Assembly (NCBI GenBank): GCA_041665365.1
Contig: JBAYIY010000002.1
Span: 2,178 to 66,177 of the forward strand
Direction: 5' to 3'
Length of the DNA: 64,000 nt
Origin: Patescibacteria group bacterium
Lineage (GTDB): Bacteria; Patescibacteriota; Patescibacteriia; UBA9570
Positions 5,002 to 63,721 of the stretch are shown here, in pieces. A program made the position numbers and the translations under genes. The first letter of the stretch is position 1, and each line of letters starts with the position of its first letter. The notes below the pieces were generated by a model. It was given only the letters and a program-made list of their open reading frames with translations, made no database searches and had not been told where the DNA came from.

Positions 5002-5014
5002 GTTTGATGTATTT

Positions 5015-5332: not shown

Positions 5333-5371
5333 TTATAAAATACTAAGTATAATATTTCGTTTTTACAAGAC

Positions 5372-5530: not shown

Positions 5531-5573
5531 GGAGCAGGCTCTAAAGCCAGTTAGTTAACAAGATGGTCTAGTA

Positions 5574-6473
5574 TTATTGTTTGTAAGTAACCACACTAAA
5601 CCCAGGCATATCATCAAAGAAAGAAACATCAGTTAGCTTCGCACGAGTATTCGTTGAACGTTGTGCAATACCGACTGATTGATTGAATGGATTACTGGTA
5701 ATGGTAATGTCAGCACCTGGCTGAAAATACTCTAGGAGTGGTTGGTCTGAAGCTGTGATAAAGATATCGGGAGTTTTAAGCATAATAGGTTGATCTAATG
5801 ATAACGTTTGGACAGTTTGGGTGTTTGGATCGTAGCTGAACCTAGCAAGTTCACGTTGTACTTGCACTGGTGGCATATTTTCAGATCCACTGGGTAACAG
5901 ATCATATAGTAACTTACTACGAACGCGAATGATGTATTGGTCGTGTGTTTTATCCCAATTACTATCCCAAAATGTATCAATGTAGGCTTCTGTGTTCCAA
6001 TCAAATTTTTGCGACAGGAGAGCCGTCACGTCAACACACGGTCCTAAAGTTTGGAAATCAAATGTGCTGATACAGTGAATTGAAGAATCGACTGGATTGT
6101 ATTCTAAAAAATCTTGCTGCGGTGAAAGTGATAAGTACTGGTACGTTCTATCAGCTGACTGCTCAATTAACTGGCTACCTTCTGGAGTTATGTAATAAAG
6201 ACCAGTGTCACCTACTAATAATTTTTGCGGTGACAAAAATTCTGTACTGGAGTCAGATTTGTAGGTAGTGTGCATCTTTCCATCTCCTGAAAATATATCC
6301 AACTTGTCATTACTATGAATCATAATTAGCGGCACACCATCATTCCATTGGATGGCAGACAAAGTGGCATTGTAGTTTGGTTGAGTAAGTCCTCCAAAAA
6401 AGTTTGATACCGTGGCTAAGATTATGAATAGATAGCTGATTAATGAAGGCATAATGTTATTACTTTTATACAT
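5574..6473 (-). CDS. Secreted hypothetical protein with an N-terminal signal/anchor
   Basis: Hydrophobic N-terminus MPSLISYLFIILATV; 299 aa. Confidence 0.5.
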   Translation of the reverse strand: MYKSNNIMPSLISYLFIILATVSNFFGGLTQPNYNATLSAIQWNDGVPLIMIHSNDKLDIFSGDGKMHTTYKSDSSTEFLSPQKLLVGDTGLYYITPEGSQLIEQSADRTYQYLSLSPQQDFLEYNPVDSSIHCISTFDFQTLGPCVDVTALLSQKFDWNTEAYIDTFWDSNWDKTHDQYIIRVRSKLLYDLLPSGSENMPPVQVQRELARFSYDPNTQTVQTLSLDQPIMLKTPDIFITASDQPLLEYFQPGADITITSNPFNQSVGIAQRSTNTRAKLTDVSFFDDMPGFSVVTYKQ

Positions 6474-6587
6474 CGTTTAATAAGGTATATACATACTAAT
6501 ACGATGCATACATTTTGTCCATAGTCCACAGCTACTTATCAAGACCATTTTGGAATTTTCTTTGATGCTTCTCAAAAAAATACAATG

Positions 6588-6665
6588 CCGGATAACATTT
6601 TTCAGCGACAGCTCACCTGCGTTCCTAAGAAGGAACTTCGGATGAGTAAACTCTACTACGCCACT
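6588..6665 (+). repeat. Partial repeat element, copy C (degenerate box2 plus hairpin)
   Basis: GCCGGATAACATTTTTCAGCGACAGCTCACCTGCGTTCCTAAGAAGGAACTTCGGATGAG. Confidence 0.6.
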
Positions 6666-6808
6666 TTTTCAAATATACAAAAACGAAAGAAGCTCTTAGT
6701 TAACACGATGTGTAGTCGCGTCAACGTTGAGCTTCGGCAGTACACAGACGACAGCTGGCGAACATTGCTGTTCAACAACCGATCTGGTCTGGTACTGAAT
6801 GTATCTGA

Positions 6809-9313
6809 CTAGCAGGGCGGTGCTGAGGTAGCGGTACCGAGATACCACCACTCGTAGTCGTCGTGACAACCGCCGGCGTAGTAGCCAGAGCAGCTGCCAT
6901 CACAACCTTCGTCCACCGTGCCGTCACAGTTGTTGTCGTTCCAGTCACCCCGTTCTGGTGCGCCCGAGTAGGTAGTTGCATCCCACCAGGCACAGTCGAA
7001 GGAGTCATCGTAGCCGTCGCCGTCCGAATCTGCCGCGCTGGAGCCGCAGACATAGGTTAGCGAACCGGTCGAGTAGTAACTTTCGTAGTCGTCGGTGCAG
7101 CCATCCCAGTAGGCGCCACCGCAACCGTAGTCACAGCTCTCGTCCGTGCTTCCATCACAATCGTTGTCGACCCAGTCGGCCAATTCAGGCGCACCGGGAT
7201 AGATGGACGCACTCCACCAACCACAATCGACAGTATCATCGTAACCGTCGCCGTCGTAGTCGCTGGCAGTGGGCGTACTGCAAGAGCTGCTCGACGCACA
7301 GTCGGAGTCTCCACAGTCCACTAGCCCATCCAGATCATTGTCCATGCCATCGGAACAGTAGAGTTCGGCGCAGGGCACATCGCCCCCAACGCAGTCATCA
7401 TCCGTTCCGTTGCCACAGATCTCTGGTGCTCCATAGTAGATGGCTGTGTTGCTGTCGTTGCAGTCATTTCCACCACAGCCCGTGGCCGTCTGGCCGTCAC
7501 CGTCGATGTCGCAGGAGGTATCGCTCTCGTCGGTGGTGTCACTCGTACTAGTCGTATCGTCCTCATCCATTGGATCGATCGCCATGCCGTTGAGTGATCG
7601 AACCTCTGTACTCGTCCGAACACCGAAGTTTCCGAACAGAATATGAGGCCGGCCGTAGGTTGAACTCAAACCAGTGATCAATTGAGACTGATCCACCTGC
7701 TCTTCGAAGCTGTTGCCGGCATTGCTCCGTGCCAGATACAGAGTTGTACCGTTGGAACGAATCAGATCGGCGTAGGCGTCGAGGTAGTCCAGAGGATAGA
7801 TGGTATAGTCACCATCCGTACCACCGACATCGGTACCCATCACTGCGATGGTGAAGGTACTCGTGCTGTTGTTATAGTGACCAGCTTCAATTTCCACACT
7901 GGAGTCACGTTCGTCGATGCGAATGATCTCATCGCTACCGTCACCATTAGTGTCGGCGACAACGAACTCATCCGTGGGCAATGCCCAACCAGTGCTGATG
8001 TTGGTCACGCTGCCAGAACTGCTCAGACGTTGCCAGGTCAGAGTGCTCCCCGAACCAGCGAAGGCTTCCGCCTCACCGTTGCCGTTGAAGTCGCCAACTA
8101 AGACGACACTACTGGTGGTTCCGAAGCTGGTGCTCCAGGTGACCGCGTCACCGAACCGACCGTTATCGCTGTCGTTGAGAAAGTACTTCCAAGTCAGAGT
8201 GCCGTCGGTGTTGGCGAAGACCAGAATCAGATCCGCGCGCCCATCTCCGTCCACATCATCCAAGAACGCTTTGACCGCTTCACCGGACGTCTTCTTCCAG
8301 CGGGTCTGAGTGTTGAGCTCTCCTTCCCCATTGGACAGGTAGACATTGGTGTAGGTGTAACCAGGCTTGATCCGCACTTGCACCAAGTCATCCCAGCCAT
8401 CGCTATTCATGTCTCCGGAGAGCCAGGACAGAATGGTGGCAGTAGAGCCAGTGTTGGTGTAGGAGAAGTAGTTACCGGACAGTGCAGTATCCTCACCCGA
8501 ACCCGTCACCTCGTAACCGTAGATGTCGAACTTGCCACTGCTGTTAGGTTCGACAGTCATGAGGTGAGTGGTGGTAGTAGTGGAGGTAGTGGCTGAGGAA
8601 GATCCGTCGTTTGTAGATTCGTAGTAGTTGCCTGCAACGTAATCCACAAACTGGATACCTTCCATTTCAACTCCATCAAGCTCACTGGTGTAGCTGTAGC
8701 CGCTGCCGTTGTACTTGATGGAGAAGTGCAGATGGGTACCAGTTGAATCTCCCGTCGTGCCAATCGCACCGAGAATTTCGCCCTGTGCCACGGTCTTGCC
8801 GATGTAGAGCGAAGACGGAATTGAATCCGCAGCGAGGTGGTAGTAGAGAGTGGTATATCCGTCACTGTGGTCGAGCTTGACGTAGCAAGCAAAATGACCT
8901 TCGCTCGCCTTGCCCTGAGTGCAGCCAGTCGTTACCATGTCAATGATCGTGCCAGCGGCGACTGCCACAGCAGGATCACCACTGTAGCGATCTTAGAAGT
9001 CGATGGCATAGTAGCCATTGTTGGCATCAGTATGCCATGAATCGATGCCACCATGTAGAATCTCGGCAACCACACCACCAGCTTCCACGTTGCACCGAAT
9101 GAGATCGCCAGGCTGCATCGGCATCTTGAGCTCGGGACCCGTATAGCCAGTGGCCTTGAGAGAAATACCCGATCGACCAGATGCACTGACATTGTCACCA
9201 CATTCAGCACCCGGCAGTGATGGATCACAATCGCCGAAGCTGCAGGCGACCAGATCGGCGAACCCGAACATCACGAAGAGGCTGATCATGAGGAGGCGGA
9301 TGTACCGTTCCAT
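6809..9313 (-). pseudogene. Secreted M23 (LytM-type) peptidase with FG-GAP repeats and a C-terminal Cys/Asp-rich repeat region. It is interrupted by an in-frame TAA at 8993-8995. It is compositionally foreign (GC-rich).
   Basis: ORFs 8993..9379 and 6809..8968 are in the same frame. The M23 block ...GYYAIDF*DRYSGDPAVAVAAGTIID...STGTHLHFS spans the stop. The region has RBS AGGAG and signal peptide MERYIRLLMISLFVMFGFADLVA. FG-GAP-like DVDGDGRADL/GDFNGNGEAEA/ADTNGDGSDEI repeats are followed by DxDxDG...CxxxDCDD...PGAPE..CDGxDNDCDG repeats. GC is about 55-60% against about 35% in the flanks. Confidence 0.55.
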
Positions 9314-9408
9314 TGGAAGACTCCTGGATTGTGAAGGAACGACTCTAGTCAAGAAGATTCCTGAGCTAGCAGAGCCCATCTAGTTGAAATAGATGGACCG
9401 GTGTTAAA

Positions 9409-10032
9409 TCAGAAATTAAATGTAATAGTAGATATAATCAATTCAACTTGTTTTTTATCTTCTTGTTTAGTGTTATTTGATAATATTGTAAAGTGTGCAT
9501 CTACTAAAGGATAATTATTAACCCAATACTCACTACTAATATCAGAAAAGAGTTCAGTTCCAGATTTTCCTCCTATTATGACCATTTTTTGTTCTAACCC
9601 CGGAACGCCATGGTCAATGTTTCTTTCGGGAAAAATTGTAAGCAGTATTTCCCCTTCCTTTGCTACCTGAACAACAGATACTTTTTTTCCTGGTAAAATC
9701 TTTGACACCAGATCAGTTTCTTGAACAGTTACATTAATGCCCACTGGATATTTAAAACTAAACCCATATTCATCATTCGTGTATGTTAACCAATCACTTG
9801 TATCCACTTCACTCACCTGTTCTGTATTAGTATTCTCATTGGTTACTACACCATTGATATTGTCATTTGAGTCCGTAACAACTACGTTAGTATTATCGTT
9901 TGTTGTATTTGTGTTTACCGTAACTGCATTGGTATTTATATTTGTTTTTTGAGTAGTTGTACAACTAGAGCCAGCTAAAAGTAGTGTGCAGGCAACTAAA
10001 GTGGTTAGTAAAGATAGTTTAGTTTTAAACAT
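9409..10032 (-). CDS. Lipoprotein, paralog A; Asn/Thr-rich linker followed by a conserved C-terminal domain
   Basis: MFKTKLSLLTTLVACTLLLAGSSC (lipobox-like). It shares ...DTSDW.TYTNDEYGFSFKYP with the 10405..11103 gene. Confidence 0.6.
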   Translation of the reverse strand: MFKTKLSLLTTLVACTLLLAGSSCTTTQKTNINTNAVTVNTNTTNDNTNVVVTDSNDNINGVVTNENTNTEQVSEVDTSDWLTYTNDEYGFSFKYPVGINVTVQETDLVSKILPGKKVSVVQVAKEGEILLTIFPERNIDHGVPGLEQKMVIIGGKSGTELFSDISSEYWVNNYPLVDAHFTILSNNTKQEDKKQVELIISTITFNF

Positions 10033-10099: not shown

Positions 10100-10198
10100 T
10101 ATTCAGCGACGGCGTTAACTATAAAAAACTCAATTTGAGCCTAACATTAGATAAAATAAATAACAGGCGCATGTGGATAACATTTTTTAGCGACGGCT
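10100..10198 (+). repeat. Two-box repeat element, copy D (box1 10104-10114; TGTGGATAA 10172-10180), abutting a 5' stub of the M23 gene
   Basis: TTCAGCGACGGCGTTAAC...65 nt...ATGTGGATAACATTTTTTAGCGACGGCTC. Confidence 0.7.
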
Positions 10199-10300
10199 CT
10201 AAGATACTAATCATGAGGAGACGGATGTACCGTTCCATTGAGAGACTCCTGGATTGTGAAGGAACGACTCTAGTCAAGAATATTCCTGAGCTAGCTGTAC
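10199..10300 (-). repeat. Truncated duplicate (stub) of the M23-peptidase 5' region (promoter/RBS/first 14 codons), copy 1
   Basis: Near-identical to 9283-9372. It encodes MERYIRLLMISLF and then diverges exactly at the repeat-element boundary. Confidence 0.7.
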
Positions 10301-11177: not shown

Positions 11178-11276
11178 CTAACGACGGCGCTAACACTAAA
11201 AAGCTCAATTTTAGCCTAACATTAGGTAAAATAAAATACAAATGTGTGTGGATAACATTTTTCAGCGACGGCTCAA
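11178..11276 (+). repeat. Two-box repeat element, copy E (TGTGGATAA 11247-11255), abutting M23 5' stub copy 2
   Basis: AACGACGGCGCTAAC...TGTGTGGATAACATTTTTCAGCGACGGCTCA. Confidence 0.7.
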
Positions 11277-11375
11277 AGAGGCTGATCATGAGGAGGCGGA
11301 TGTACCGTTCCATTGGAAGACTCCTGGATTGTGAAGGAACGACTCTAGTCAAGAAGATTCCTGAGCTAGCTGTAC
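11277..11375 (-). repeat. Truncated duplicate (stub) of the M23-peptidase 5' region, copy 2
   Basis: Identical to 9287-9372 over about 90 nt, including the AGGAG RBS and codons 1-14. Confidence 0.7.
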
Positions 11376-13704: not shown

Positions 13705-13837
13705 TACACAAGGGCTTTTCCGCGACGGCGCAAATACAAAAAATCAGTAAAATCACAAAATTATCCAAATTAATTGTTAATTATATAAAAAAATACCTTG
13801 TGTATAACTTTTTTTAGCGACGGCGCTACACTTGCAT
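13705..13837 (+). repeat. Two-box repeat element, copy F, overlapping the promoter region of the asparaginase-like operon
   Basis: CCGCGACGGCGCAAA ...70 nt... TTGTGTATAACTTTTTTTAGCGACGGCGCTACAC followed by TTGCAT (-35-like) and RBS AAGGA. Confidence 0.6.
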
Positions 13838-21926: not shown

Positions 21927-23564
21927 TTACGTAATTGGCAGTTTCACCGTAAATGTCGAACCACGGCCAATGGCTGAGATTAACTCAATGGTGCCGCCGT
22001 GTTTTTCAATAATACTTTTAACAATATAAAGGCCTAACCCGGAACCGGATGGATCTTTAATAACCGCTTCACGCCCGCGGAAAAACTTGGTATATAATTT
22101 ATCCCGGGTGATTTCGGACATCCCAATGCCATGATCAATCACGCGCACCACCACTTCTTCACGTTGTAACTCCATGGTGATCGTTACTACCTGAGTAGCG
22201 GAAGAATATTTTACAGCGTTATCTAATAAATTTTGAAAAGCCATTTTAATCTTTTGCCGATCGAGTTTTAGTAATGGAATAGATGACGGCGGCGTAAACT
22301 CAATCATTACCTGTAAGCGCTCAGCGTGTACCCGCGTGGCTGTCACTATTTCCTGCAACACATCAAGCAACGAAGTATCCACAAATGTTAACGGTAAACG
22401 CCCCCCTTCAATTTCGGACACATCTAATAAATTGTTCACTATCTCAATCACCTCTTCATTACGTTGATACCCTTTCGCAATTAGATCCTGTTGTTTATCG
22501 GTCATGGGCCCGCCATCACCATCTAATAATAGTTTAAATAACCATTTCAAAGTTGATAACGGCGTGCGCAACTGATGAGCCGCCACTGAAATAAAATCTG
22601 ACTTCATTTGATCCAGATCTTTCTCCTTGGTGATATTACGCAAAATTACCAAGGCGCCAATATTACTCCCATCAGAATCTGACACTTGCAAAGCTGTGGC
22701 TTGCACAATGACATGTTCATCCCCTTCTTGAATAATCATCTCCGTACTTTCATACACCGAGCCTTTGGTGGCACCCCGAATAAATTTTACTAAATCATGC
22801 AACGCTGGTGGAAATTGATTAGGTAAAAATATTTTGTTGACGTATTGATTGGTGTGGATATGTAACAAACGTTGCGCATATGGATTCATTAACACTACGC
22901 GACCACGATAATCTAATAAAATTACGCCATCAACTAAATTGTTGACAATCGACACCACTTTATCGCGTTCTGATTCAATGGCCGCCTCACGTTGTTTGAT
23001 TAAATTGTTAATAAAAGCTGAAAAAAATGAAATACAAATTAAAGTAAATACCACGGTTGAACCATTATTTACCGTCGCAGTGATATTTCCAAAAAAACCC
23101 GGATCATAATTATACGGTGTCAGGTGTGGCAAAACGGTACTATGTTCCAAGATTAACAGGCCGATATAGAGAAACACTGTAAACAACATTAAGCCGATAA
23201 TTTGTATTTCATTAAATAATATTATGGCCATAAATAATGTCACAAAATAAAACAAGAAGGTGTAACTCTCTATACCCCCTGTCATGTACAGCACAATCGT
23301 ATAGAGAATTTGATCGAGCATAATTTGCGTAATACAAACAATCTGTAAACCACGATTTGTAATTTGCTTTAAGGGTCGACGTAAATAGAAATAAAAAATC
23401 GCATTGTAACTATAACTCACAAGCAACAGAACAAATATGATTGGATTAAAATGTACCACGCCGGCAATTTGCTGAATTAAGCCCAAAATGGCAAACAAAG
23501 CGTGCAGTACCCACCGGCTGGCAATAATATAATGCAACAATTTAACGCGTCGCTCTTTATTCAT
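21927..23564 (-). CDS. Sensor histidine kinase (multi-TM N-terminus, PAS-like region, HisKA, HATPase_c)
   Basis: FISVAAHQLRTPL H-box; VIDHGIGM...GSGLGLYIVKSIIEKHGG. Confidence 0.85.
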   Translation of the reverse strand: MNKERRVKLLHYIIASRWVLHALFAILGLIQQIAGVVHFNPIIFVLLLVSYSYNAIFYFYLRRPLKQITNRGLQIVCITQIMLDQILYTIVLYMTGGIESYTFLFYFVTLFMAIILFNEIQIIGLMLFTVFLYIGLLILEHSTVLPHLTPYNYDPGFFGNITATVNNGSTVVFTLICISFFSAFINNLIKQREAAIESERDKVVSIVNNLVDGVILLDYRGRVVLMNPYAQRLLHIHTNQYVNKIFLPNQFPPALHDLVKFIRGATKGSVYESTEMIIQEGDEHVIVQATALQVSDSDGSNIGALVILRNITKEKDLDQMKSDFISVAAHQLRTPLSTLKWLFKLLLDGDGGPMTDKQQDLIAKGYQRNEEVIEIVNNLLDVSEIEGGRLPLTFVDTSLLDVLQEIVTATRVHAERLQVMIEFTPPSSIPLLKLDRQKIKMAFQNLLDNAVKYSSATQVVTITMELQREEVVVRVIDHGIGMSEITRDKLYTKFFRGREAVIKDPSGSGLGLYIVKSIIEKHGGTIELISAIGRGSTFTVKLPIT

Positions 23565-23896
23565 AAAGCGGGTTGACTGTAAGTTGGTTGAAGTTGTTTG
23601 ACTGGTGTTTGGCCATCAAATAATTGCAAATTCTTACTATAAGCTAACGCATTGAAAATGGTGGCTAATACTCTAATTAAAGTAAAAGATTGAGCCTGAT
23701 TTACTAGCACTAAAGCCTCAATTGGGTCTGCCCCGAGAAATTGACTGATCTCAGCTAATAAATGATCGGCTTTGGATTGTTCTAAAACTTTTTGTCGGAT
23801 AAGTTTATCAGCCTGACGATAAGTTAGGATAACATGATTGAGTTGTGATGGATCACATTCTAAAATATACATATTATAAATTAGGTGACCACCCAC
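23561..23896 (-). CDS. Hypothetical protein, coupled to the kinase by an ATGA overlap
   Basis: 111-aa ORF; 4-nt overlap with the downstream kinase gene. Confidence 0.4.
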   Translation of the reverse strand: MGGHLIYNMYILECDPSQLNHVILTYRQADKLIRQKVLEQSKADHLLAEISQFLGADPIEALVLVNQAQSFTLIRVLATIFNALAYSKNLQLFDGQTPVKQLQPTYSQPAL

Positions 23897-24584
23897 CGGC
23901 TATTTCTAGATTAGCACCGGACACATATTTTGCCTCAGGTGAAATTAACCAACGCACAGCAGTTGTAATGTCCTCAAACTTGGCTGGATGTTGCATTGGT
24001 AAGGCTTGCGTTACCAAACTGTTTTCCACGATACCCGGAGACATACAATTCACTGTAATATTTTCATGAGCTAATAACGACGCGTATGATTTGGTTAAAG
24101 TAATCACACCGGCTTTGGCAATGTAATACGGCACGGTATATTTTCGCGCTAAGGTTTGTTCAGCGGTGACACAACCAAAATTAATAATCCTTCCTCCCCC
24201 ACTGGTGCGCAATAATGGTATGGCGGCTTGCATACACGCCAATGTTGCGCGCACATTACTCGAAATAACGTCATCAAATTCTTCCAGTGTTACCTGACTA
24301 ATGGGATGATATACCCCAAAAGAACCAATTGTGTTGATTAGAACATCTAAACGCCCATAGGTGTGGTGAATCGCCTGAAATAATCTGGTCACTTCATCAT
24401 TATGGCGCAAATCGGCTTGCATCATCCGTGAGGCTGGAGCATGAATTTGAACCTGATGTAACACTTGTTTGGCGGCTTCGGCACTATGCCTATAATGCAC
24501 CACAACAGTAGCCCCTTGCGCCGCGAGATCTAAAGCGATAGCTCGACCAATTCCCTTGGCCGCACCGGTAACAACTGCAATCAT
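23874..24584 (-). CDS. Short-chain dehydrogenase/reductase (SDR) family oxidoreductase
   Basis: VVTGAAKGIGRAIALDLAAQGATVVV Rossmann motif; YxxxK region present. Confidence 0.8.
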   Translation of the reverse strand: MIAVVTGAAKGIGRAIALDLAAQGATVVVHYRHSAEAAKQVLHQVQIHAPASRMMQADLRHNDEVTRLFQAIHHTYGRLDVLINTIGSFGVYHPISQVTLEEFDDVISSNVRATLACMQAAIPLLRTSGGGRIINFGCVTAEQTLARKYTVPYYIAKAGVITLTKSYASLLAHENITVNCMSPGIVENSLVTQALPMQHPAKFEDITTAVRWLISPEAKYVSGANLEIAGGWSPNL

Positions 24585-53811: not shown

Positions 53812-55731
53812 TTAATCCTTCTTCTCCTTAAACTCAGCATCCTCTACAACCTCTCCCTCTTTTGTCTTTCCTTCAGCGTCTTCAGGTTTTTGTTCAGCGC
53901 CTTTCTGCGATCCCTTGTCCGCCTCTTGCGCGGCTTTATAGGCTACCTCACCCATCTTCTGCGCGGCGGTGGCTAACTCATCAGAGGTTTTTTTGATCTT
54001 TTCAATGTCATCACCGGACAGAGCAGTTTTAACATCTTCCATTTTATCTTGAATGTTTTTTACTTCTTCCGGAGATAATTTAGCACCATGTTCTTTGACG
54101 GCTTTCTCGGTGGTATAAACCATCGTTTCCGCCAGATTCTTAGTTTCAGTCAACTCTTTTTTCTTGCGATCTTCATCGGCATGTAACTCGGCTTCTTTGG
54201 CCATCTTTTCCACTTCTTCTTTACTTAAACCAGTGGAAGCGGTAATACGAATACTTTGCTCTTTATTGGTGGCTTTATCTTTGGCTTTCACATTAAGAAT
54301 ACCATTAGCATCGATATCAAACGTCACTTCAACTTGTGGCAAACCACGGGGCGCTGGTGGTAAACCAGTTAAAACAAACTTACCGAGCGATTTATTATCC
54401 GCGGCCATTTCCCGTTCACCTTGCAACACATGAATCTCCACTGAGGTTTGATTATCAGCCGCGGTACTAAACACCTGGCTCTTGGAGGTTGGAATGGTGG
54501 TATTGCGTGGAATCAATGGTGTGCGCACACCGCCGAGGGTTTCTAAACCTAAGGTTAAAGGTGTGACATCAAGTAGCAATACATCTTTCACTTCGCCTTG
54601 TAACACACCGGCCTGAATGGCAGCACCAATGGCGACAACTTCATCCGGGTTTACGCCAGCGTGTGGTTCTTTTCCAAAAAATTCTTTCACTTTACGAATC
54701 ACCATCGGCATACGCGTCATTCCACCCACTAACACCACTTCATGAATATCACCCACTGACAAACCGGCGTCTTTTAAAGCGGCTTTGACTGGCTCCATGG
54801 ATTTATCCACCAAGCCACCCACTAACTCTTCCAATTTAGAGCGCGTTAAACGAATGACTAAATGTTTTGGACCAGTTGACGGATCGTTCGCGATAAATGG
54901 CTGATTAATTTCCGTTTCTTGCGCAGACGACAATTCAATCTTGGCTTTCTCAGCCGCTTCTTTTAAACGTTGTAAAGCTAATTTATCTTTGGAAAGATCA
55001 ATCCCTTCTTGTTTCTTAAATTCATCAATTAACCATTTAATTAAATACTGATCAAAGTCATCACCGCCTAAGTGCGTATCACCATTAGTGGCTTTTACTT
55101 CAACGGTATCGTTACCGACTTCCAGAATGGAAATATCAAACGTACCACCGCCTAAATCATAGACGGCAATTTTCTCATCGGCTTTTTTATCAAAGCCATA
55201 AGCTAAGGCCGCCGCGGTTGGTTCATTGATAATCCGTTTGACATCCAAGCCAGCGATTTTACCGGCGTCTTTAGTGGCCTGACGTTGGGCATCATCAAAA
55301 TACGCTGGCACAGTAATGACAGCTTCTGTCACTGGTGCACCTAATCTGGCTTCAGCATCGGCTTTTAATTTCGCTAACACCATGGCCGAAATTTCCTGAG
55401 GGGCATAATTTTTATCACCCATCTTCACACTAACACCTTCACCATCTTGTTTCACAGCATAAGGTAACATCTTAATATCACTCTGCACGGTGGCTTCACC
55501 AAACCGGCGGCCAATTAAACGCTTCACCGAAAAGATAGTATTATCGGCATTGGTCACGGCCTGACGTTTGGCCACTTGCCCCACCAGACGATCTCCATTT
55601 TTCGATAAGGCTACCACTGACGGAGTCGTGCGCAGTCCTTCTGAATTTTCTAATACTTTTGGTTGTCCACCTTCAATCACTGCCACGCAGGAGTTGGTAG
55701 TACCAAGATCAATTCCGATAATTTTTCCCAT
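53812..55731 (-). CDS. dnaK: Chaperone DnaK (Hsp70)
   Basis: [18 protein letters not shown]..., DLGGGTFD, full Hsp70 architecture. Confidence 0.97.
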
Positions 55732-55776
55732 AAATTTTTTATTGAGACATGCCATGGCATGTCTTTACTAATTAAG

Positions 55777-56199
55777 TTACTTAGTTGAAACTTTAATCGT
55801 CTTTTTCTGTGCCACAGTCGCTTTGGGGATACTAACTTTTAGCATACCACTGACATAATCGGCTTTGGCTTGATCGCCATCCACGCTGCAAGGTAAAGCC
55901 ACCGCGCGATGGAAAGATCCATAACGCACTTCTTTGCGATAATAATCTTTTTCATCGACTTCGGATTGTTTTTCACTACTCCCTTCAATCGATAACACAT
56001 CGTTTTCAATTGAAATTTTTAACTTGTCGGCATCCACTCCGGGTAATGGAGTTTCTACCACCACTTGATTATCTTTTTCATAGACATCAACCGCTGGAGA
56101 GAAATTACCAGCCGTTAAATTGCCAGAAAAATCTTCGAACATATTGTTGAAATCCTGAAACATGGGCGGGTTAACGGGTGACCATTTTACTAATCTCAT
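55777..56199 (-). CDS. Hsp20/alpha-crystallin small heat-shock protein
   Basis: Alpha-crystallin domain (VDVYEKDNQVVVETPLPGV...GSFHRAVALP...GMLKVSIPK). It lies between grpE and dnaK. Confidence 0.8.
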   Translation of the reverse strand: MRLVKWSPVNPPMFQDFNNMFEDFSGNLTAGNFSPAVDVYEKDNQVVVETPLPGVDADKLKISIENDVLSIEGSSEKQSEVDEKDYYRKEVRYGSFHRAVALPCSVDGDQAKADYVSGMLKVSIPKATVAQKKTIKVSTK

Positions 56200-56228
56200 A
56201 GGTATGTTTATTAATGTTATTAATTGAT

Positions 56229-56717
56229 TTATTTTTTCGCCACAATGACTTTGGCGTGACGAATCACTTTATCGTGCATCATGAAACCAGCTTGGGCTTC
56301 ACGCACGATGGTTTGATCGGGTTGCTCGGAGGCTTCTTCACCCACCGCCTCATGGAGGTGTGGATCAAACGGTTTACCAACCGTCTCCATTCGTTCAACC
56401 GAATGGTTTTTTAAAACTTGGAGTAAATAAGTTTGAATGTGCTTAACACCTTGCAGCCAAGGTTGCGTCAGTTGTTCCGGTGGAATAGCTTGGAAAGCGC
56501 TATCGAAATAATCTACCAGTGGGCAAAGTTCCTGCAGTAAATCTTCATTGGCAAATTGTCTAATATGTTTTAAACGTTCGTCTGTTTCCCGTTGTAAGTT
56601 TCTGTAATCGGCCGTGGCTCGTTGCGCCACTTCTTTATAATCAATTTCAGTTGGTTCTTCCGGCGTTTCTTCCGCCTGTTCTTCGACGGCCGGTTCAATT
56701 GGTTCTGTTTCAGTCAT
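56229..56717 (-). CDS. grpE: Nucleotide exchange factor GrpE
   Basis: Acidic N-terminus; ...DYRNLQRETDERLKHIRQFANEDLLQEL.... Confidence 0.85.
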   Translation of the reverse strand: MTETEPIEPAVEEQAEETPEEPTEIDYKEVAQRATADYRNLQRETDERLKHIRQFANEDLLQELCPLVDYFDSAFQAIPPEQLTQPWLQGVKHIQTYLLQVLKNHSVERMETVGKPFDPHLHEAVGEEASEQPDQTIVREAQAGFMMHDKVIRHAKVIVAKK

Positions 56718-56720
56718 ATT

Positions 56721-57443
56721 TTATGGTTGATAAGTGTTTAATAGTGCTTTGGTATATTTCATTAGCCCGTAATTATACTGATACTGCATGCGCATCGGGC
56801 CAAGCAACGCCATGGTGCCGGCCACATTGGCAGCACGATAGGGTGTCACCAACACGCTACAATACCGGCTAATAGGATTATCACTCCCGACATAAAACGT
56901 AATATCATCATCTGGCTCGGTGCTGTGCAATTTCATCATGACATCATCTAAGTGATCAATTAATTGAGTAAAGCGTAACATCTCATTAACGCTCTTAAAT
57001 TCTGGCTTACTAAATAAGTTTGAAATACCAGTATAAAAGAAACTACTCCGGTTTAAACTAATCAGTATCGCCTCTTGTGATTTCGCCGCCACGCCTTTCA
57101 TGACAGTTTTAATCATCCCCTCTGTGCCTTGATCGGACACCACTTTGGTTAATTGTCTTAACTCTTCTTGGCTAGCTGTATCCAATTCGTTTTTGCTATC
57201 CAAGAATTCTTCCAAAAAATAGCGATACCCTTGTTCGGTTGGTATCCGCCCGGCGGATGTATGCGGCTGAATAATCAGGCCAGCGTCTTCTAATTCCTTC
57301 ATTTCATTGCGAATTGTCGCTGAAGATAGATCTAAACCCAACTTATCCACAAGCAATTGTGAAGGAACCGGTTTGGCCTCAACGCCGTATTCTTCAATAA
57401 TCCCCAATAAAAGCGCTTGTTTTCTATCAGATAAGGCAGCCAT
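56721..57443 (-). CDS. hrcA: Heat-inducible transcription repressor HrcA
   Basis: MAALSDRKQALLLGIIEEY...LSSATIRNEMKELEDAGLI. Start placed at MAALS because the CIRCE element lies immediately upstream. Confidence 0.85.
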   Translation of the reverse strand: MAALSDRKQALLLGIIEEYGVEAKPVPSQLLVDKLGLDLSSATIRNEMKELEDAGLIIQPHTSAGRIPTEQGYRYFLEEFLDSKNELDTASQEELRQLTKVVSDQGTEGMIKTVMKGVAAKSQEAILISLNRSSFFYTGISNLFSKPEFKSVNEMLRFTQLIDHLDDVMMKLHSTEPDDDITFYVGSDNPISRYCSVLVTPYRAANVAGTMALLGPMRMQYQYNYGLMKYTKALLNTYQP

Positions 57444-57460
57444 AACTGTATGATAAATAA

Positions 57461-57487
57461 TTAGCACTCCCCTGTCAAGAGTGCTAA
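57461..57487. promoter_or_regulatory. CIRCE operator (HrcA binding site)
   Basis: TTAGCACTC-N9-GAGTGCTAA, a perfect consensus, 17 nt upstream of the hrcA start. Confidence 0.9.
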
Positions 57488-57519: not shown

Positions 57520-57921
57520 TCAGCGATAATGACGTAAATTGTCCAAGGGTACAACACCCATCATTCTTTTACACCTCGTAGCAATTTCAGTAGGCATCAC
57601 CTTAGTTTTCTCCCAAAATGCCAAAGCACCTAAATTTTTGGTTTGTTCCATAATCTCCCGACCGGCCAGGTTTGATAGCATAATAACAGGAATATTATTG
57701 GTAGTAGTATCTGACTTCAGTTTCTTTAAAACCTCAATACCACTCATATCCTCCATAATAATATCAAGCAAGATTAGGTTAGGGTGAAGAGCGCGAGCTT
57801 GGGCTAGGCCGTAATTACCACCATCCGCCGTTTCTAGTTTCATCCCGACATGCTGAAATGCAATGAAGTAAAGCATTGCTTGATCAAGGTCATCTTCAAT
57901 TAGCAGCACTTGCTTAGTCAT
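57520..57921 (-). CDS. Response-regulator receiver domain protein (CheY-like, no output domain)
   Basis: LLIEDDLDQAMLY...LILLDIIMEDMSGIEVLKKLK...PVIMLSN. Confidence 0.75.
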   Translation of the reverse strand: MTKQVLLIEDDLDQAMLYFIAFQHVGMKLETADGGNYGLAQARALHPNLILLDIIMEDMSGIEVLKKLKSDTTTNNIPVIMLSNLAGREIMEQTKNLGALAFWEKTKVMPTEIATRCKRMMGVVPLDNLRHYR

Positions 57922-57925
57922 ATCA

Positions 57926-59560
57926 TTACGATTTGGTCAGTTCAACGTAAAATGTCGTTCCTTTGCCTTCACCTGGGCTAATGAAGTAAATCTTACCACC
58001 CGGATGAGCTTCAATGATTTTCTTTACAATAAATAATCCTAAGCCAGACCCATCAGCATAAGAGTTAACAGCATTTCTCGCACGTGTAAATTTCTCAAAT
58101 ATCTTGGGTTGATCATCTACGGGTACACCAATACCTGAATCACTAATTTTTACAATGACTTTGTTAGTCCCTATTTCAGGTAATAGTAGTTCCATCTTTA
58201 CAAAGCCTTTGGGTGTATATTTGATGGCATTATCAACGATATTAAACAAAGCATTTTCAAGATAATGCTCATTGCCGGAAACCATGACAGCCTTGTCACT
58301 CGCTACCTGCTCATAGGTAAGGGTAATTTTGCTTGCGTCGGCCTTTTCTTGAAGATCAGTATAAACTTTTTTTAATAGCTTCTGCACATCTAACGGTTTA
58401 ATAGCTTCCTTGGACAGGTGAAAATTCATAATATCCATTTCTGATGCCTGCAAAATATCGTTAATGATACAAGTGAGTTTCCTGGATTTTACAAAAATAC
58501 CTTCAAGTAACTTGGCCTTCTGGTCTGGCGGTAGTTGGTCTATTGTTCCGTCCTGCATCAACGATAGTGTACCGGTGATTAGGGATACAGGCGTACGGAG
58601 TTGATGGGATGCCACTGTCAAAAAATCAGATCGCGCTTTAATGAGTTGCTCGATGGCTTGGTTTTGTTTGATTTCTAGAAGAATATTTTTGATCAATGCA
58701 ATACCAAATATTATAGTCAGTAAAAATGTAACTGTCGTCACAATACGTAGTGTTTCAACTTGACTAATAAAAATCATGGAAAAATTCAGCGTGGCTAAAG
58801 AAAATACCAATGCGAAAGAACCTACAAGTTTGATGTTAAACGTTTTATATTTTACTATGCCGTACATAAGGAAACCGATAAATATAGGCATGCCTATCAA
58901 ACCAACTTGTGCTAACGTCCAGTTCTCTGTAAAACTTCCTATTAGGTTACCCGAAGAAAATGCTATTAAAAATAGTACGATTCCAATACCAAAGATCATT
59001 ACCTCTTTCTTTCTCGTAGGGGTAGAAATTTTTCTGTATTCAAAAATAGTCAGAAATGTAATTGACAATATAAATACTGATTCAATAATATAAGTAAAAT
59101 ATTGAGCCATAAAACCTTCTATGGCATTACATGTACTTACATTTACACCAATCAGACTATAGTTGGTCGGTAAAAGTAAAACTACAGGCAAATATAAAAG
59201 TATAGCTAACAGTTTCCATTTTAATAACAAGTCTTTGTTTTTAATAAATATATACGCTAAATAGAAACATATTAGATAGACGAACGGTTCAACTAAGATT
59301 TGTAACGACCAGAAGAACAAAACAACATCTGGTCTATTTGTCGCCCATACTATCAAATCAAATAAACACCATAAAGAAAACAAAATACTAACTGTCAGTA
59401 AAGATATTCCTACTTTAGATTTACCACTTCTATAAAAAACAAGAAATCCTACAAGTAATGCTACAATTATAGCTGGAATATGTGAGTAGAAAAAAAGAGT
59501 AGGTATGTTACTTGAATAAATAAAGTATTGAGCTGTTTCCCAGGGACATAATTGTTCCAT
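57926..59560 (-). CDS. Sensor histidine kinase with an N-terminal 7TM-type membrane sensor domain
   Basis: Multi-TM N-terminal domain; HisKA FLTVASHQLRTPV; HATPase GSGLGLFIVKKIIEAH. Confidence 0.8.
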   Translation of the reverse strand: MEQLCPWETAQYFIYSSNIPTLFFYSHIPAIIVALLVGFLVFYRSGKSKVGISLLTVSILFSLWCLFDLIVWATNRPDVVLFFWSLQILVEPFVYLICFYLAYIFIKNKDLLLKWKLLAILLYLPVVLLLPTNYSLIGVNVSTCNAIEGFMAQYFTYIIESVFILSITFLTIFEYRKISTPTRKKEVMIFGIGIVLFLIAFSSGNLIGSFTENWTLAQVGLIGMPIFIGFLMYGIVKYKTFNIKLVGSFALVFSLATLNFSMIFISQVETLRIVTTVTFLLTIIFGIALIKNILLEIKQNQAIEQLIKARSDFLTVASHQLRTPVSLITGTLSLMQDGTIDQLPPDQKAKLLEGIFVKSRKLTCIINDILQASEMDIMNFHLSKEAIKPLDVQKLLKKVYTDLQEKADASKITLTYEQVASDKAVMVSGNEHYLENALFNIVDNAIKYTPKGFVKMELLLPEIGTNKVIVKISDSGIGVPVDDQPKIFEKFTRARNAVNSYADGSGLGLFIVKKIIEAHPGGKIYFISPGEGKGTTFYVELTKS

Positions 59561-59585
59561 AACTGTATTCTACATGTAAATGTTG

Positions 59586-60515
59586 TTAATGGGAAGTTGA
59601 ATATAAGAAGTAACTACCTATTAAGATAGTTCCGATAGAAATAATCTTATGGAATAAATGTTTTTTGGAGATTTTCTCAGATATAAACTTTGGAAAAAAT
59701 ATTGTTAATAGTACGGCGCTAAGAAAAACAAAAAGGGATTGATAACTATTTACAACAAACACCAGGGCTACAGGGGCGATCAATATAGCAAAATTGTTTG
59801 CAAGGCCACCAACTATATATAAAAGCTCGCTTACTACATTGAGAGACAAGACATTTAGTTTCGGCGCAGTAATCATAGCGATAAAATTTTGTCTAAATTT
59901 TTTATAAAAAATTAGAACTACTATTCCAAAAATTGTCAGCCCAACATATTGCCAAAAAATCGATACCCAATAACCATTCTCAAGAGCTAATTTTTTAAAT
60001 AAAACTCCACTGACAGCAAATAAAAAGGAAGCAGAAATTATTAACGATAGGACTTTCTTTTTTAAAGTAAATTTGTTATTTATATCAATCTCCACGGAAA
60101 GCATTAAAATACCTAATAAAATTAATAAGGAAGAAAAGATCTGAGGTACGTTAAGTGACTCTCCAAGAAGAAAATAACCTAAAATATAACCAAAAATAGG
60201 GTCAAGCTGAAACAATGGGATTACTGTTGAGGCTTCTTCTATGTCCATTGCTTTCAAGTAAAAATAAAAAGCCATAGCACCCAAGAAACCAATAAATGAC
60301 AATACAAAAAAATTGTTTAGAGATATATTGAAAATTGCAGAAAAATGAAAGTAGACAATAAATGGTAAAATAATAAATGAAGAAAGGGAAGAAAAAATAA
60401 GAATAGCACCAACACCCCTGCCCTCTTGATATCTAGAAAGAATATGTTTATCAATATGATTAACAACACCCCAGAGAGTCGGAGCTACTAGTGACAATAT
60501 AAACCAGTTCGGCAT
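59586..60515 (-). CDS. DMT/EamA family transporter
   Basis: 10-TM protein with duplicated EamA-like halves. Confidence 0.6.
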   Translation of the reverse strand: MPNWFILSLVAPTLWGVVNHIDKHILSRYQEGRGVGAILIFSSLSSFIILPFIVYFHFSAIFNISLNNFFVLSFIGFLGAMAFYFYLKAMDIEEASTVIPLFQLDPIFGYILGYFLLGESLNVPQIFSSLLILLGILMLSVEIDINNKFTLKKKVLSLIISASFLFAVSGVLFKKLALENGYWVSIFWQYVGLTIFGIVVLIFYKKFRQNFIAMITAPKLNVLSLNVVSELLYIVGGLANNFAILIAPVALVFVVNSYQSLFVFLSAVLLTIFFPKFISEKISKKHLFHKIISIGTILIGSYFLYSTSH

Positions 60516-60518
60516 AAA

Positions 60519-61553
60519 TTATTGATTTTCCCCCGATATTTCTCCTTCAACAATTGCAAAACTTCGATCCACAAAAGATCTCTTATAGGTAAAAAAAATT
60601 GAAATTGAAACGAGCACGCTAACTATCAAAATCACCATTAAAATTGTTGACTTTGCATTCATCTGTTGAATAAACTTTTTATATCTTACTATATTGTAGA
60701 CAAGGAAACCTATAAAAAACGGCATACCAAACAAACCATATTGGCCGTAGGACCAGTTGCCGGTGTAGCTGCCGACAACATTTCCCAGTGCGAACGAGAT
60801 CAGGAAGAAGATTAGCCCACATAATACAGTTAAAGCTTCCGATTTTTGAGCCTGTTCTTTAGAGTTAAAATATTTTTTAAGCACCAAGACTAGTGCCCAC
60901 CCCATGAAGATGGTTTCAATATAATAATTGGCGAAGACCAATGCTCCTTCCACTGCATTACGATCACAATTTGTGAGATCAAAGCTCTCCAAGTTAAAAT
61001 GCGTGGGCAACAAGATAAAAGTCGGTAAAAGAAGAACCCCTGCAATCATAGCGGATTGAAATGACAAAGGCTTTTTATTGAGGAAAAGGTAGGTGAAATA
61101 AAGACAGACAAAATAAATCAGCGGATCGATAAGATTAGTTATTGCCCAAAAAAACATGACATACTGAGGTTGATCTGTCGCCCAGACAATCATATCCGCC
61201 ATAGACCAAATAAAGAACAAGGATACAATGATCAGTAATGCGCGGGTCAGAGGATTATTTCTGCTTTTGCGAAAAACATATAATCCAAAAATGAGCGACA
61301 ATAGTGCTGGTATGAAATGGGAGTAGTAGACGACTTGATCAAACACATTTTCTGAAAAAAAGAAAAAGTACACAGGTGACCATTCACAGGCCTGTATTTC
61401 AGCGCTGACAGTTGCAATAGGTACAGGTGTGGCTCCCTTAACCAATAAAACCGAAATATCTTCCACGACAATATTCCTATAAAAAGAAGCACTAATTGCT
61501 ATGGCCCCAGCGAGTAGAAAAAAGTATAAAATTATTTTAGTGCGCTTTTCCAT
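60519..61553 (-). CDS. Stand-alone 7TM sensor-domain protein, paralog of the N-terminal domain of kinase 57926..59560
   Basis: Shared blocks SLFFIWSMADMIVWATDQPQYVMFFW...YFVCLYFTYLF versus SLWCLFDLIVWATNRPDVVLFFW...YLICFYLAYIF, and CDRNAVEG versus CNAIEG. No kinase domain. Confidence 0.6.
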   Translation of the reverse strand: MEKRTKIILYFFLLAGAIAISASFYRNIVVEDISVLLVKGATPVPIATVSAEIQACEWSPVYFFFFSENVFDQVVYYSHFIPALLSLIFGLYVFRKSRNNPLTRALLIIVSLFFIWSMADMIVWATDQPQYVMFFWAITNLIDPLIYFVCLYFTYLFLNKKPLSFQSAMIAGVLLLPTFILLPTHFNLESFDLTNCDRNAVEGALVFANYYIETIFMGWALVLVLKKYFNSKEQAQKSEALTVLCGLIFFLISFALGNVVGSYTGNWSYGQYGLFGMPFFIGFLVYNIVRYKKFIQQMNAKSTILMVILIVSVLVSISIFFTYKRSFVDRSFAIVEGEISGENQ

Positions 61554-61670
61554 TTTTTTCTTAGTACACTTTCAAAATTTATGGTATCCAGGCTTGTTCA
61601 CATGAATGAATTGTACGATCTAGTTTACTCTTTAAGTTAAATTGTAGCATACAAAACTGTTTTATCAAAC

Positions 61671-63047
61671 TTATTTCTTATACTGCACACTCGCCACAGC
61701 CATGGCTTGATGCAAAAAACCGGCAAAGCGACGCATGGCGTCAGTTACACCCTGATCAACCTTATGATTAGGGGTTATTTTTGGCAAGATAACCCCAACG
61801 AAACCCACGGAAACGTCATTATTGAGTAATGGAAGGATGTATTGAGTATTAGAATTAAGTTGTTTCATAAATTTGTGTGAAACAGCGTCGATCGATAGCA
61901 TGGTGTTATTTTTTAGAAGATTCGTCATATGATCATCAGGTTGCACTTGAACCAGTTCGTCCCCCACCTTAAAAAAGGTATTGTTTTGGGAATCGAATAG
62001 AAAAATATCAGTGGTAACAATGTCAAATTCATCAACTAAGTATAGTTTTATTCTTTGTATCAACCATTCCACGGACATATCCATCGGCCGATGTTCCGGT
62101 AAAGCAAAGCACAGCGATGATTGTTTACTGAGATAATGACTAAAATGTAACAATATAACCATATCAATTACACCAATTACAAATAACACAACCGCCTGTA
62201 CAACAAATAAATTTGTAAACTGCTGTATTAGATATGATACTGCAATCAATACAATAACCAACATGCTAATAATAAATCCAAGAATTATTTGCCCACGTAA
62301 ACGAATAGTGATATCAAACAAACGATACCGAGTTATGGCATAAGCTGTAGTGGTTGTCCAAACACTGGTTATGGTGGCACTTAAAATCAGCACACTAACA
62401 AATTGATCTGAACCCAATAAGTAAAGTTTATCAGGCCAGATGATACCAAATATTAACGGGATAATAATCGTACAAAGAGTAGCTAATAATGAAAATAATA
62501 AACTATTACGGACTAATGATTGTCTGGCATTTTCTAACTTAGATGTTCCAGATTTAACTACGCGAAAAAATAATAAATAGAGTGCCAATGTTATCATGAC
62601 AGCAAATGCCCCATAATAAAACATCATCCCCCAAGAATTTGATTCTATTATATAGTTATGATATTTAGAACCAACATAAAGACGTGAACCGACACCAATT
62701 ATTGGTATCATCATACACACAAGAACTAACACAATAAAACCAATCATTTTAATCCATGGCAACACTTTTGTTTCTGAATAGTTTACTAAAAAACCTAAAG
62801 TACTAAACATAATTAAATACCCAAATAAAAATTCTACTCTATCAATAAAATTATTACCATATATGCCATGATCGGTATATTGAGAAAACCAAAAAAATAT
62901 TTCCCAGATAACCATGGAACTCAACGCGATGCTAAACCACAAGATAGTTTTGTTCCAGCGACCTTTAGCAATTAGTATAATTGATACAATCGCATCAAAG
63001 GCGATGGTGATTGGTAGAACATATTTTAGAATGGTGATGAGAAGCAT
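61671..63047 (-). CDS. Polytopic membrane protein with a C-terminal soluble domain (possibly GAF-like)
   Basis: About 10 TM segments followed by about 150 aa of cytoplasmic domain. No kinase motifs. Confidence 0.45.
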   Translation of the reverse strand: MLLITILKYVLPITIAFDAIVSIILIAKGRWNKTILWFSIALSSMVIWEIFFWFSQYTDHGIYGNNFIDRVEFLFGYLIMFSTLGFLVNYSETKVLPWIKMIGFIVLVLVCMMIPIIGVGSRLYVGSKYHNYIIESNSWGMMFYYGAFAVMITLALYLLFFRVVKSGTSKLENARQSLVRNSLLFSLLATLCTIIIPLIFGIIWPDKLYLLGSDQFVSVLILSATITSVWTTTTAYAITRYRLFDITIRLRGQIILGFIISMLVIVLIAVSYLIQQFTNLFVVQAVVLFVIGVIDMVILLHFSHYLSKQSSLCFALPEHRPMDMSVEWLIQRIKLYLVDEFDIVTTDIFLFDSQNNTFFKVGDELVQVQPDDHMTNLLKNNTMLSIDAVSHKFMKQLNSNTQYILPLLNNDVSVGFVGVILPKITPNHKVDQGVTDAMRRFAGFLHQAMAVASVQYKK

Positions 63048-63107
63048 ATTTGATTATTTTAAATTTGAATGCCCACACACTACACCATTCACAAAATTAC
63101 ACAATAC

Positions 63108-63196
63108 CTTTTAGCGCCGTCGCTGAAATTTTTGTTGAAAAAACTACTCAAACTATGGCAAATTTGGCTAAAAACTTTGTTAGCGCCGTCGCACGT
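63108..63196 (-). repeat. Two-box repeat element, copy G (inverted orientation), upstream of the 61671..63047 membrane protein gene
   Basis: Minus strand reads CGTGCGACGGCGCTAACAAAG...CAACAAAAATTTCAGCGACGGCGCTAAAAGG. Confidence 0.6.
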
Positions 63197-63200
63197 TGAA

Positions 63201-63653
63201 TCAAATTTTCACCAATTTCTTCACTTTATCAACCACCTCACTGGGTTGATACCGTGCCTTCACCCAGAAATCTACTGCCCCTAGTTTTTGCGCGCGCTCT
63301 AAGTTCTCGTTTTTTATACCCTCATCAAGGTTAGTAAATACAACAACGGGAATGTTTTTAGTCTGTGGATTATTTTTCAATGCACTCAAGAGATTAAAAC
63401 CAACCTCCTTATTTATGGCATCGGGTATACCACTTTGTTTAGGCAAAACCAGATCGAGCAGAATTAGCTGCGGTTGTTCAGTTTCGGCTAAAGATATGGC
63501 CTGAGTTGTATCTGTAGTCGTTGACAAACGGCACTGGCCATCCACTAAGAATTTGTGTTTGTACATGTCAATCAACATCTGATCATCGTCAATTAGTAGA
63601 ACTTTGGGTTTAATTCCATTCATAAAAATAATTGTAACAGTTTTATCAAGCAA
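63201..63653 (-). CDS. Response-regulator receiver domain protein (no output domain)
   Basis: VLLIDDDQMLIDMY...LILLDLVLPKQSGIP...PVVVFTNL. Confidence 0.75.
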   Translation of the reverse strand: MLDKTVTIIFMNGIKPKVLLIDDDQMLIDMYKHKFLVDGQCRLSTTTDTTQAISLAETEQPQLILLDLVLPKQSGIPDAINKEVGFNLLSALKNNPQTKNIPVVVFTNLDEGIKNENLERAQKLGAVDFWVKARYQPSEVVDKVKKLVKI

Positions 63654-63721
63654 TGACCATAGGCTTTTTACTACTTACTTCAGCGTCTTCAGTTTCTTCT
63701 CATCTTTTCAGCGATCCGTTT

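Follow-up and report, generated by a model that had tools for sequence, protein, structure and literature searches.

The locus described here raises the question of why the membrane sensor domain of a histidine kinase should be present three times in one gene cluster and be joined to a kinase in one copy only. The cluster is in a 64,000-nt stretch of contig JBAYIY010000002.1 from a Patescibacteria group bacterium; this whole stretch is termed the window. The domain is HisKA_7TM (PF16927), a known but uncharacterized family; the literature found on it consists of census or review mentions (PMC5847659, PMC6944256), and no member has a known ligand or a solved structure. The three open reading frames that carry it are termed HK (the kinase), S7TM (a standalone sensor) and MP458 (a larger membrane protein). 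The interpretation put forward from comparative genomics, tentatively and with somewhat less than even confidence, is that of a two-component cluster built on HisKA_7TM in which S7TM and MP458 would be accessory sensors or modulators of HK.

An open reading frame check of the cluster shows six open reading frames, all on the minus strand and all at the coordinates proposed in the initial annotation. They are listed in order of transcription (RR2, MP458, S7TM, EamA/DMT, HK, RR1), with the predicted transmembrane (TM) helices.

63201..63623 (open reading frame extends to TTG 63653), minus strand: RR2, receiver-only response regulator (Pfam and residues)
61671..63047, minus strand: MP458, divergent HisKA_7TM (7 TM) followed by 2 TM and a cytoplasmic GAF domain, kinase-less (hhalign, AlphaFold2)
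60519..61553, minus strand: S7TM, 344 aa, signal-anchor TM followed by 7 TM and 1 TM, without a cytoplasmic domain (Pfam PF16927)
59586..60515, minus strand: DMT/EamA-family membrane transporter (Pfam EamA)
57926..59560, minus strand: HK, HisKA_7TM (7 TM) followed by 2 TM, HisKA and HATPase (Pfam)
57520..57921, minus strand: RR1, receiver-only response regulator, 133 aa (Pfam Response_reg)

The HisKA_7TM domain in three open reading frames

HK is the sole kinase of the cluster. Pfam searches show HATPase_c (E-value = 9e-23), HisKA (E-value = 2.9e-11) and HisKA_7TM (E-value = 1.3e-5), the last with a score of 25.6 bits, slightly under the gathering score of 28.6. The translated sequence displays the phospho-acceptor His and the N, G1, F and G2 boxes of a class I (HisKA-type) kinase (SHQLRTP, DNAIKYT, DSGIG, FEKF and GSGLGL, respectively), and a profile search of the PDB matches kinase cores at an E-value of 8e-48. 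Among the three, a kinase core C-terminal to HisKA_7TM is found in HK only; S7TM and MP458 carry the domain without being kinases.

The presence of Cys-containing blocks and a WAT motif common to HK and S7TM, proposed in the initial annotation, is borne out by BLASTP (37% identity over 242 aa, E-value = 1e-56): CPWE/CEWS, TCNAIEG/NCDRNAVEG and WATNRP/WATDQP are in register in the alignment. Two Cys residues are invariant in an alignment of 47 family sequences (C56 and C196 in S7TM, C5 and C144 in HK), as are W136, Y210 and G273. The blocks YYSH, LWAT and GQYGLFGMP are nearly invariant, and so is W124 of the WAT motif.

Hydropathy and the positive-inside rule predict seven TM helices in both HK and S7TM, with the N-terminus outside and the last helix ending in the cytoplasm. 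On this topology the WAT loop and both Cys residues (the N-terminal one and that of the TM4–TM5 loop) lie on the outer face. The Cys blocks are family-defining and are predicted to face outward, and an extracytoplasmic disulfide or a ligand site is topologically possible.

The 7TM domain of HK is closest to that of the family proteins P0064, P0011 and P0057 (46%–48% identity), as against 37% to S7TM. By this comparison HK and S7TM belong to different subclades and are not recent duplicates.

BLASTP shows no similarity of MP458 to HK or S7TM. At the profile level, hhalign aligns the MP458 family with the kinase family with 97.9% probability (E-value = 4e-13, 218 columns). The alignment ends at a common motif just after TM7, which is TRYRLFDI in MP458, VKYKTFNI in HK and VRYKKF in S7TM. 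The earlier claim that the three membrane domains are related can therefore be kept, with BLASTP linking HK to S7TM and the profile comparison alone linking MP458. Judged by these alignments, the three are paralogous sensor domains and MP458 is a distant branch. Searches of solved structures with the membrane part of MP458 (Foldseek and PDB profile) gave only weak, generic 7TM/GPCR-like matches.

MP458 itself has no Pfam or NCBIfam match and is labelled “hypothetical protein” in public records. A word-indexed sequence search found only MP458 itself, and an exhaustive HMMER search was needed to reveal its family. The latter consists of 27 representative clusters, nearly all with a chain length of 440–503 aa. 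Seven of 26 family members match HisKA_7TM (best E-value = 6.9e-22), and the family profile pulls out kinases with the architecture HisKA_7TM-GAF-HisKA-HATPase. Both conserved Cys residues are absent from MP458.

An AlphaFold2 model of MP458 made with the family alignment (pLDDT 84.7, pTM 0.67) displays nine TM helices (7+2) and an alpha/beta tail at aa positions 326–457; TM1–7 end in the RYRLFD segment and two more TM helices follow. (A single-sequence model, with a pLDDT of 46.5, was not used.) The tail profile matches the GAF structure 3ci6 in the PDB with an E-value of 4.6e-8, and 3ksg, 4mcw, 3trc and 3o5y at less than 1e-3. Foldseek gives 3ci6_B as a match to the tail fold (TM-score 0.51), and the tail profile aligns to the Pfam-annotated GAF regions of 7TM-GAF kinases. 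MP458 had been described before as a larger membrane protein with a cytoplasmic tail; by profile and by predicted fold this tail is a GAF domain.

S7TM has HisKA_7TM as its only Pfam match (34.5 bits, over the gathering score) and is labelled “histidine kinase N-terminal 7TM domain-containing protein” in public records. Outside of assemblies with the identical protein, its closest relative is P0003, a full-length kinase of 582 aa. P0003 is 67% identical over residues 1–311 of S7TM, and the similarity ends right after TM7. S7TM is, on this alignment, a derivative of a full-length kinase lineage in which everything after TM7/TM8 has been lost. No kinase remnant for S7TM or MP458 is present in the window. 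Among complete family genes from metagenomes, 55 of 56 carry the kinase, the exception being a split gene (L029); kinase loss is thus a rare, derived state. A few other shortened members (P0022, P0065 and the L029 split gene) seem to be artefacts of frameshifts or of contig assembly.

P0002, from another sample, is a second kinase-less copy. It is a complete open reading frame with 84% identity to S7TM, is truncated at the same point and carries the same new C-terminal helix. (At the P0002 locus, L004, which was checked for a following EamA gene, the contig ends within the region homologous to the S7TM tail.) The ratio of nonsynonymous to synonymous substitution rates (dN/dS) between S7TM and P0002 is 0.11 over a 294-codon core (dS 0.85), and is looser in the short tail, 0.43. 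S7TM also retains every invariant residue of the family, including C56 and C196, and its open reading frame is intact in three assemblies. The standalone sensor paralog of the initial annotation is thus real and under purifying selection: the dN/dS of 0.11 shows S7TM to be a maintained gene and not a pseudogene. As S7TM has no cytoplasmic domain, any action must take place in or outside the membrane.

Gene neighborhoods and a possible role of the kinase-less copies

Kinase-less copies are also found near kinases at other loci. One example is the P0003 locus (L001), which reads EamA, one gene of unknown function, a SET-domain gene, kinase, receiver (REC) and a 496-aa 7TM-GAF protein. The component types are those of the window, arranged in another order; where the window has the standalone sensor, L001 has a full-length kinase, and its 7TM kinase, REC and 7TM-GAF genes are consecutive. 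Two kinase-less 7TM-GAF genes and one 7TM-GAF-HisKA-HATPase gene are present within ~5 kb in each of L006, L091 and L092; L010 has one kinase-less 7TM-GAF gene and one kinase gene, and L009 has two short 7TM-only genes and one kinase.

Overall, at least five loci besides the window encode a kinase-less 7TM-GAF protein a few kb away from a 7TM kinase. The MP458-type gene has a histidine kinase at ~5 kb or less in the window and in each of the eight other such loci examined (L001, L005, L006, L008, L009, L010, L091 and L092). This kinase is a soluble GAF kinase at L005 and carries the same 7TM domain everywhere else. Judged informally, such proximity is well beyond expectation for kinase-poor genomes. 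The presence of several HisKA_7TM paralogs, one of them with a kinase, is a recurring arrangement, and the recurrence of kinase-less HisKA_7TM(-GAF) genes beside a 7TM kinase makes a functional link likelier than chance.

L005 (positions 1602–9584) has an organization of its own. An MP458 ortholog of 446 aa precedes a 248-aa protein whose only match is to the GAF-tail profile. The GAF-HisKA-HATPase kinase, without a detected 7TM sensor domain, is 5 kb downstream with unrelated genes between. The arrangement resembles a sensor kinase divided into separate genes.

Most family kinases have a different neighbor. Of 59 non-redundant metagenome loci, 53 encode a small SET-domain protein (about 160–185 aa) immediately upstream of the kinase and on the same strand; eight more have it one gene farther away. 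Pfam PF00856 was above threshold in all seven SET proteins tested. The pairs are in L011–L090 and L001, e.g. L015:7499-8011, L017:7338-7820 and L001:3135-3689. No SET homolog is present in the window, and no description of the pair was found in the literature searched for SET domain, histidine kinase and Patescibacteria. REC and EamA neighbors are found at 4 and 2, respectively, of 67 non-redundant other family-kinase loci (EamA within four genes).

The cluster of the window is bracketed by two receiver-only regulators, as had been noted before. Pfam shows Response_reg and nothing else in RR1 (E-value = 7e-16) and in RR2 (E-value = 7e-13). RR1 has EDD, D53, S83 and K104; RR2 has DDD, the D in LILLDLV, the T in VVFTNL and the K in FWVKA. 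Both sequences thus show an acidic pocket, the phospho-acceptor Asp, Thr/Ser and Lys of a stand-alone receiver, and no output domain. A C-terminal PSEVV motif in RR2, with a weaker form in RR1, is common to receivers beside family kinases; all REC genes that adjoin these kinases consist solely of receiver domains, lack an output domain and have a PSEVV-type C-terminus.

In the interpretation preferred here HK would be the only phosphodonor of the cluster and would phosphorylate the adjacent RR1 and possibly RR2. Because the two regulators have no DNA-binding domain, they would act by protein–protein contacts. S7TM and MP458 would associate with HK in the membrane through the shared 7TM domain, and either provide extra inputs or sequester HK protomers; the GAF domain of MP458 could contribute a cytoplasmic input. 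Histidine kinases require a dimer of the dimerization and histidine phosphotransfer (DHp) domain. A one-to-one heterodimer of HK with a kinase-less partner would for that reason be inactive, i.e. titrated, and higher-order assemblies could add inputs instead. Heteromeric modulation of HK, suggested in the initial annotation as heterodimerization or titration, is a plausible hypothesis. We infer, as parts of this scheme, the physical interaction and the direction of its effect, the ligand, the role of EamA (supplier of a substrate, or co-sensor) and the output.

A broader version, judged unlikely, is that Patescibacteria use a “shared kinase” design in which several kinase-less HisKA_7TM paralogs assemble with one kinase-bearing paralog. 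This would be loosely analogous to the many chemoreceptors on one CheA. The kinase in most relatives would then be coupled to a SET-domain methyltransferase and not to a DNA-binding regulator.

Several observations weigh against a role of S7TM and MP458 as partners of HK. With 37% identity and separate subclades, the compatibility of HK and S7TM in a heteromer is not assured, and HK has no GAF domain to match that of MP458. MP458 and RR2 are probably separate transcription units. The cluster as a unit did not hold up in relatives: apart from the window, only assemblies with identical proteins (L002 and L003) have this exact gene order, and the neighbors in L001 are 24%–35% identical to those in the window, or related at profile level only, and are not clear orthologs.

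Base composition also hints that the parts have different histories. The G+C content at third codon positions (GC3) is 0.256 in the membrane part of HK and 0.261 in the DMT gene, against 0.394 in S7TM; the kinase part of HK has 0.367. MP458 shows a similar break, with 0.271 in its membrane part versus 0.409 in its GAF part. The regions of low GC3 (0.26–0.27) are 58670–60515 and 62120–63047, and the window mean is 0.364. GC3 shows no correlation with hydropathy across the window (r = −0.09), and S7TM is equally hydrophobic with a typical GC3.

An insertion of a low-GC block (EamA with a foreign 7TM domain) into a P0003-like kinase, yielding S7TM and a chimeric HK, was considered in view of the sharp GC3 step and rejected, since the kinase domain of HK shares just 34.6% identity with that of P0003 and ranks 35th of 139.

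A somewhat unlikely alternative is that S7TM and MP458 function independently of HK. HisKA_7TM would then be a general membrane receptor or binding module, and S7TM and MP458 would either signal with other partners (MP458 through its GAF domain) or play a non-signaling part in the membrane; the clustering would result from duplication and rearrangement in a small genome. The stable kinase-less family to which MP458 belongs, its probable separate transcription behind its own two-box region (see below), the different subclades of HK and S7TM and the lack of a conserved cluster order are in accord with this, as is L005, where the nearest kinase to the MP458 homolog is a soluble one 5 kb away. It does not explain well the kinase found within ~5 kb in the window and at all eight other MP458-type loci examined, and S7TM by itself, with no cytoplasmic domain, has no obvious signal route.

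The transporter could also be the key partner, either as a co-sensor whose transport state is read by S7TM and/or HK, in the manner of the transporter/kinase pairs BceAB-BceS and UhpC-UhpB, or as an exporter or importer of the ligand. The DMT/EamA transporter previously placed between HK and S7TM is confirmed by Pfam (EamA, residues 4–140, E-value = 8e-15). Its second half is equally hydrophobic, and a second EamA repeat was not reported at the threshold used; the protein is strongly hydrophobic (grand average of hydropathy 1.03) and belongs to the DMT/EamA family, which is characterized by EamA repeat(s) and about ten TM helices. The gene is separated from S7TM and HK by just 3 nt and 25 nt, and EamA genes are a few genes away from family kinases in L001, L040/L041 and L080/L081. 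Nevertheless this explanation is improbable: the 2 of 67 loci with EamA within four genes are near chance level, the EamA protein in L001 is 24% identical to that in the window, and the GC3 of the gene, the lowest in the cluster, is compatible with a separate origin.

That S7TM is a decaying, functionless remnant of a duplicated or broken kinase gene might be suggested by its sister full-length kinase, by the similarity that stops after TM7 and by the artefactual look of other truncated members, but it is largely refuted and very improbable in view of the dN/dS of 0.11, the truncation and C-terminal helix shared with P0002, the retained invariant residues, the open reading frame intact in three assemblies and the lack of a downstream kinase remnant.

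Transcription units and flanking sequences

The intergenic gaps within S7TM-DMT-HK-RR1 are 3, 25 and 4 nt, respectively, and no convincing internal terminator was seen on inspection of this sequence; HK and RR1 are probably in the same operon. Larger gaps precede S7TM (117 nt) and MP458 (153 nt). An Rfam search of the cluster yielded no RNA family. From consensus matches, three transcription units are likely, together with a CIRCE-controlled heat-shock operon. The relevant elements are as follows.

63659..63631, minus strand: promoter-like TGGTCA-17-TGnTACAAT upstream of RR2 (consensus match only)
63180-63192 and 63111-63123, minus strand: GCGACGGCGCTAA box (13 nt), two exact copies between RR2 and MP458 (motif scan)
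61641..61668, minus strand: promoter-like TTGATA-16-TGnTACAAT upstream of S7TM (10/12 matches, extended −10 TG; consensus match only)
57461..57487, no strand assigned: perfect CIRCE operator TTAGCACTC-N9-GAGTGCTAA (0 mismatches)

RR2 is more likely to start at ATG 63623 (140 aa, as called in L002) than at TTG 63653 (150 aa), since a transcript from the promoter-like site at 63659..63631 would begin downstream of the TTG. An mRNA starting at this site would be nearly leaderless with respect to ATG 63623.

A copy of a two-box repeat had been noted upstream of MP458, and the two exact GCGACGGCGCTAA boxes are indeed present in the 153-nt gap. There are 12 box matches in the window at two or fewer mismatches, versus 0.68 expected, and the MP458-upstream boxes align with five other two-box copies. 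Boxes of the form GCGACGGCG(C/T) are at positions 4577-4589, 5379-5391, 10106-10202, 11181-11277, 13722-13829 and 63111-63192. They are mostly paired, 69–95 nt apart and intergenic, and adjacent genes encode secreted or hypothetical proteins (SBP_bac_3, PsbP-like). In five aligned copies a DnaA-box-like TTGTGGATAACA stands before the second box, and this box would fall within a weak promoter's spacer; the MP458-upstream copy is without TTGTGGATAACA. A conserved plus-strand stretch of ~90 nt follows the box copies at about 10.2 kb and 11.3 kb, and may represent a small open reading frame, MYRSI(E/G)RLLDCEGTTLVK..., or an RNA.

The CIRCE site is directly downstream of the cluster and marks the start of a separate hrcA-grpE-hsp20-dnaK unit. 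The inverted repeat TTAGCACTCCCCTGTCAAGAGTGCTAA is upstream of hrcA and overlaps a promoter-like TTGACA-17-TATCAT at 57478..57450. The true start of hrcA is probably an ATG near 57443, rather than GTG 57557, which overlaps RR1. This operon (53812-57443) thus adjoins the cluster, and in at least seven other loci (L029, L030, L033, L034, L064, L080 and L085) dnaK/grpE are 5–7 kb away from the SET-kinase pair. The proximity could reflect lineage synteny or a functional link to the stress response.

A second, conventional two-component locus is present in the window at 21927-24584. It has a PAS-HisKA-HATPase kinase (21927-23564), preceded by open reading frames of 111 aa and 236 aa.

Relation to known systems and significance

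VNG_2180C of Halobacterium salinarum is a HisKA_7TM sensor histidine kinase listed in a census of archaeal two-component systems (PMC5847659). Such kinases have the same N-terminal 7TM domain and HisKA/HATPase core as HK and most of its relatives. They differ from the present cluster, where the domain is also found without a kinase (S7TM) or fused to GAF alone (MP458), and the Patescibacteria subfamily is set apart by its invariant Cys pair, predicted to face outward.

In UhpC/UhpB and BceAB/BceS, a membrane accessory protein is the real sensor for a polytopic kinase, and the interaction has been shown experimentally. The likeness is in a kinase-less polytopic protein and a transporter beside a polytopic kinase, with intramembrane signaling presumed. 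In those systems, however, the accessory protein is a transporter homolog and the regulators bind DNA, whereas here it is a paralog of the kinase's own sensor and the association is at the level of genes.

RetS-GacS of Pseudomonas is closer in another respect. RetS, a kinase paralog, restrains a kinase by forming heteromers, and it keeps its DHp and catalytic domains, through which it exerts its effect. A paralog that would modulate a bona fide kinase, beyond the classical kinase–regulator pair, is also what is proposed for the window. S7TM and MP458, in contrast, are without DHp and catalytic domains, so that any contact must go through the 7TM domain (or GAF).

The “incomplete” histidine kinases of archaea keep HisKA and lack HATPase only, and stand-alone REC proteins also occur there (PMC5847659). 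As in the present case, the catalytic core of the sensor modules is incomplete, and the receiver-only regulators are presumed to work by protein contacts. S7TM and MP458 differ in being without both HisKA and HATPase, and the hosts are Patescibacteria.

Receiver-only regulators, incomplete kinases and accessory membrane proteins for kinases are thus already known. The new elements are the paralogy of the accessory candidates to the sensor domain of the kinase itself, the selection on one of them after loss of the kinase, and the recurrence of the arrangement in Patescibacteria.

HisKA_7TM is widespread and has no known ligand, structure or mechanism, and signaling in Patescibacteria (candidate phyla radiation) is almost unstudied. 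The invariant Cys pair and the near-universal SET neighbor provide experimental handles on this kinase family. Should the heteromer idea fail, the locus would be an ordinary two-component locus with extra membrane proteins. A kinase-less copy under selection nonetheless implies that the 7TM domain has a selectable function by itself, and the groups with several sensors and one kinase point in the same direction. This raises the hypothesis that a histidine kinase may be controlled by truncated proteins paralogous to its own sensor domain. If the shared-kinase design is true, a very small genome would obtain several inputs from one catalytic core.

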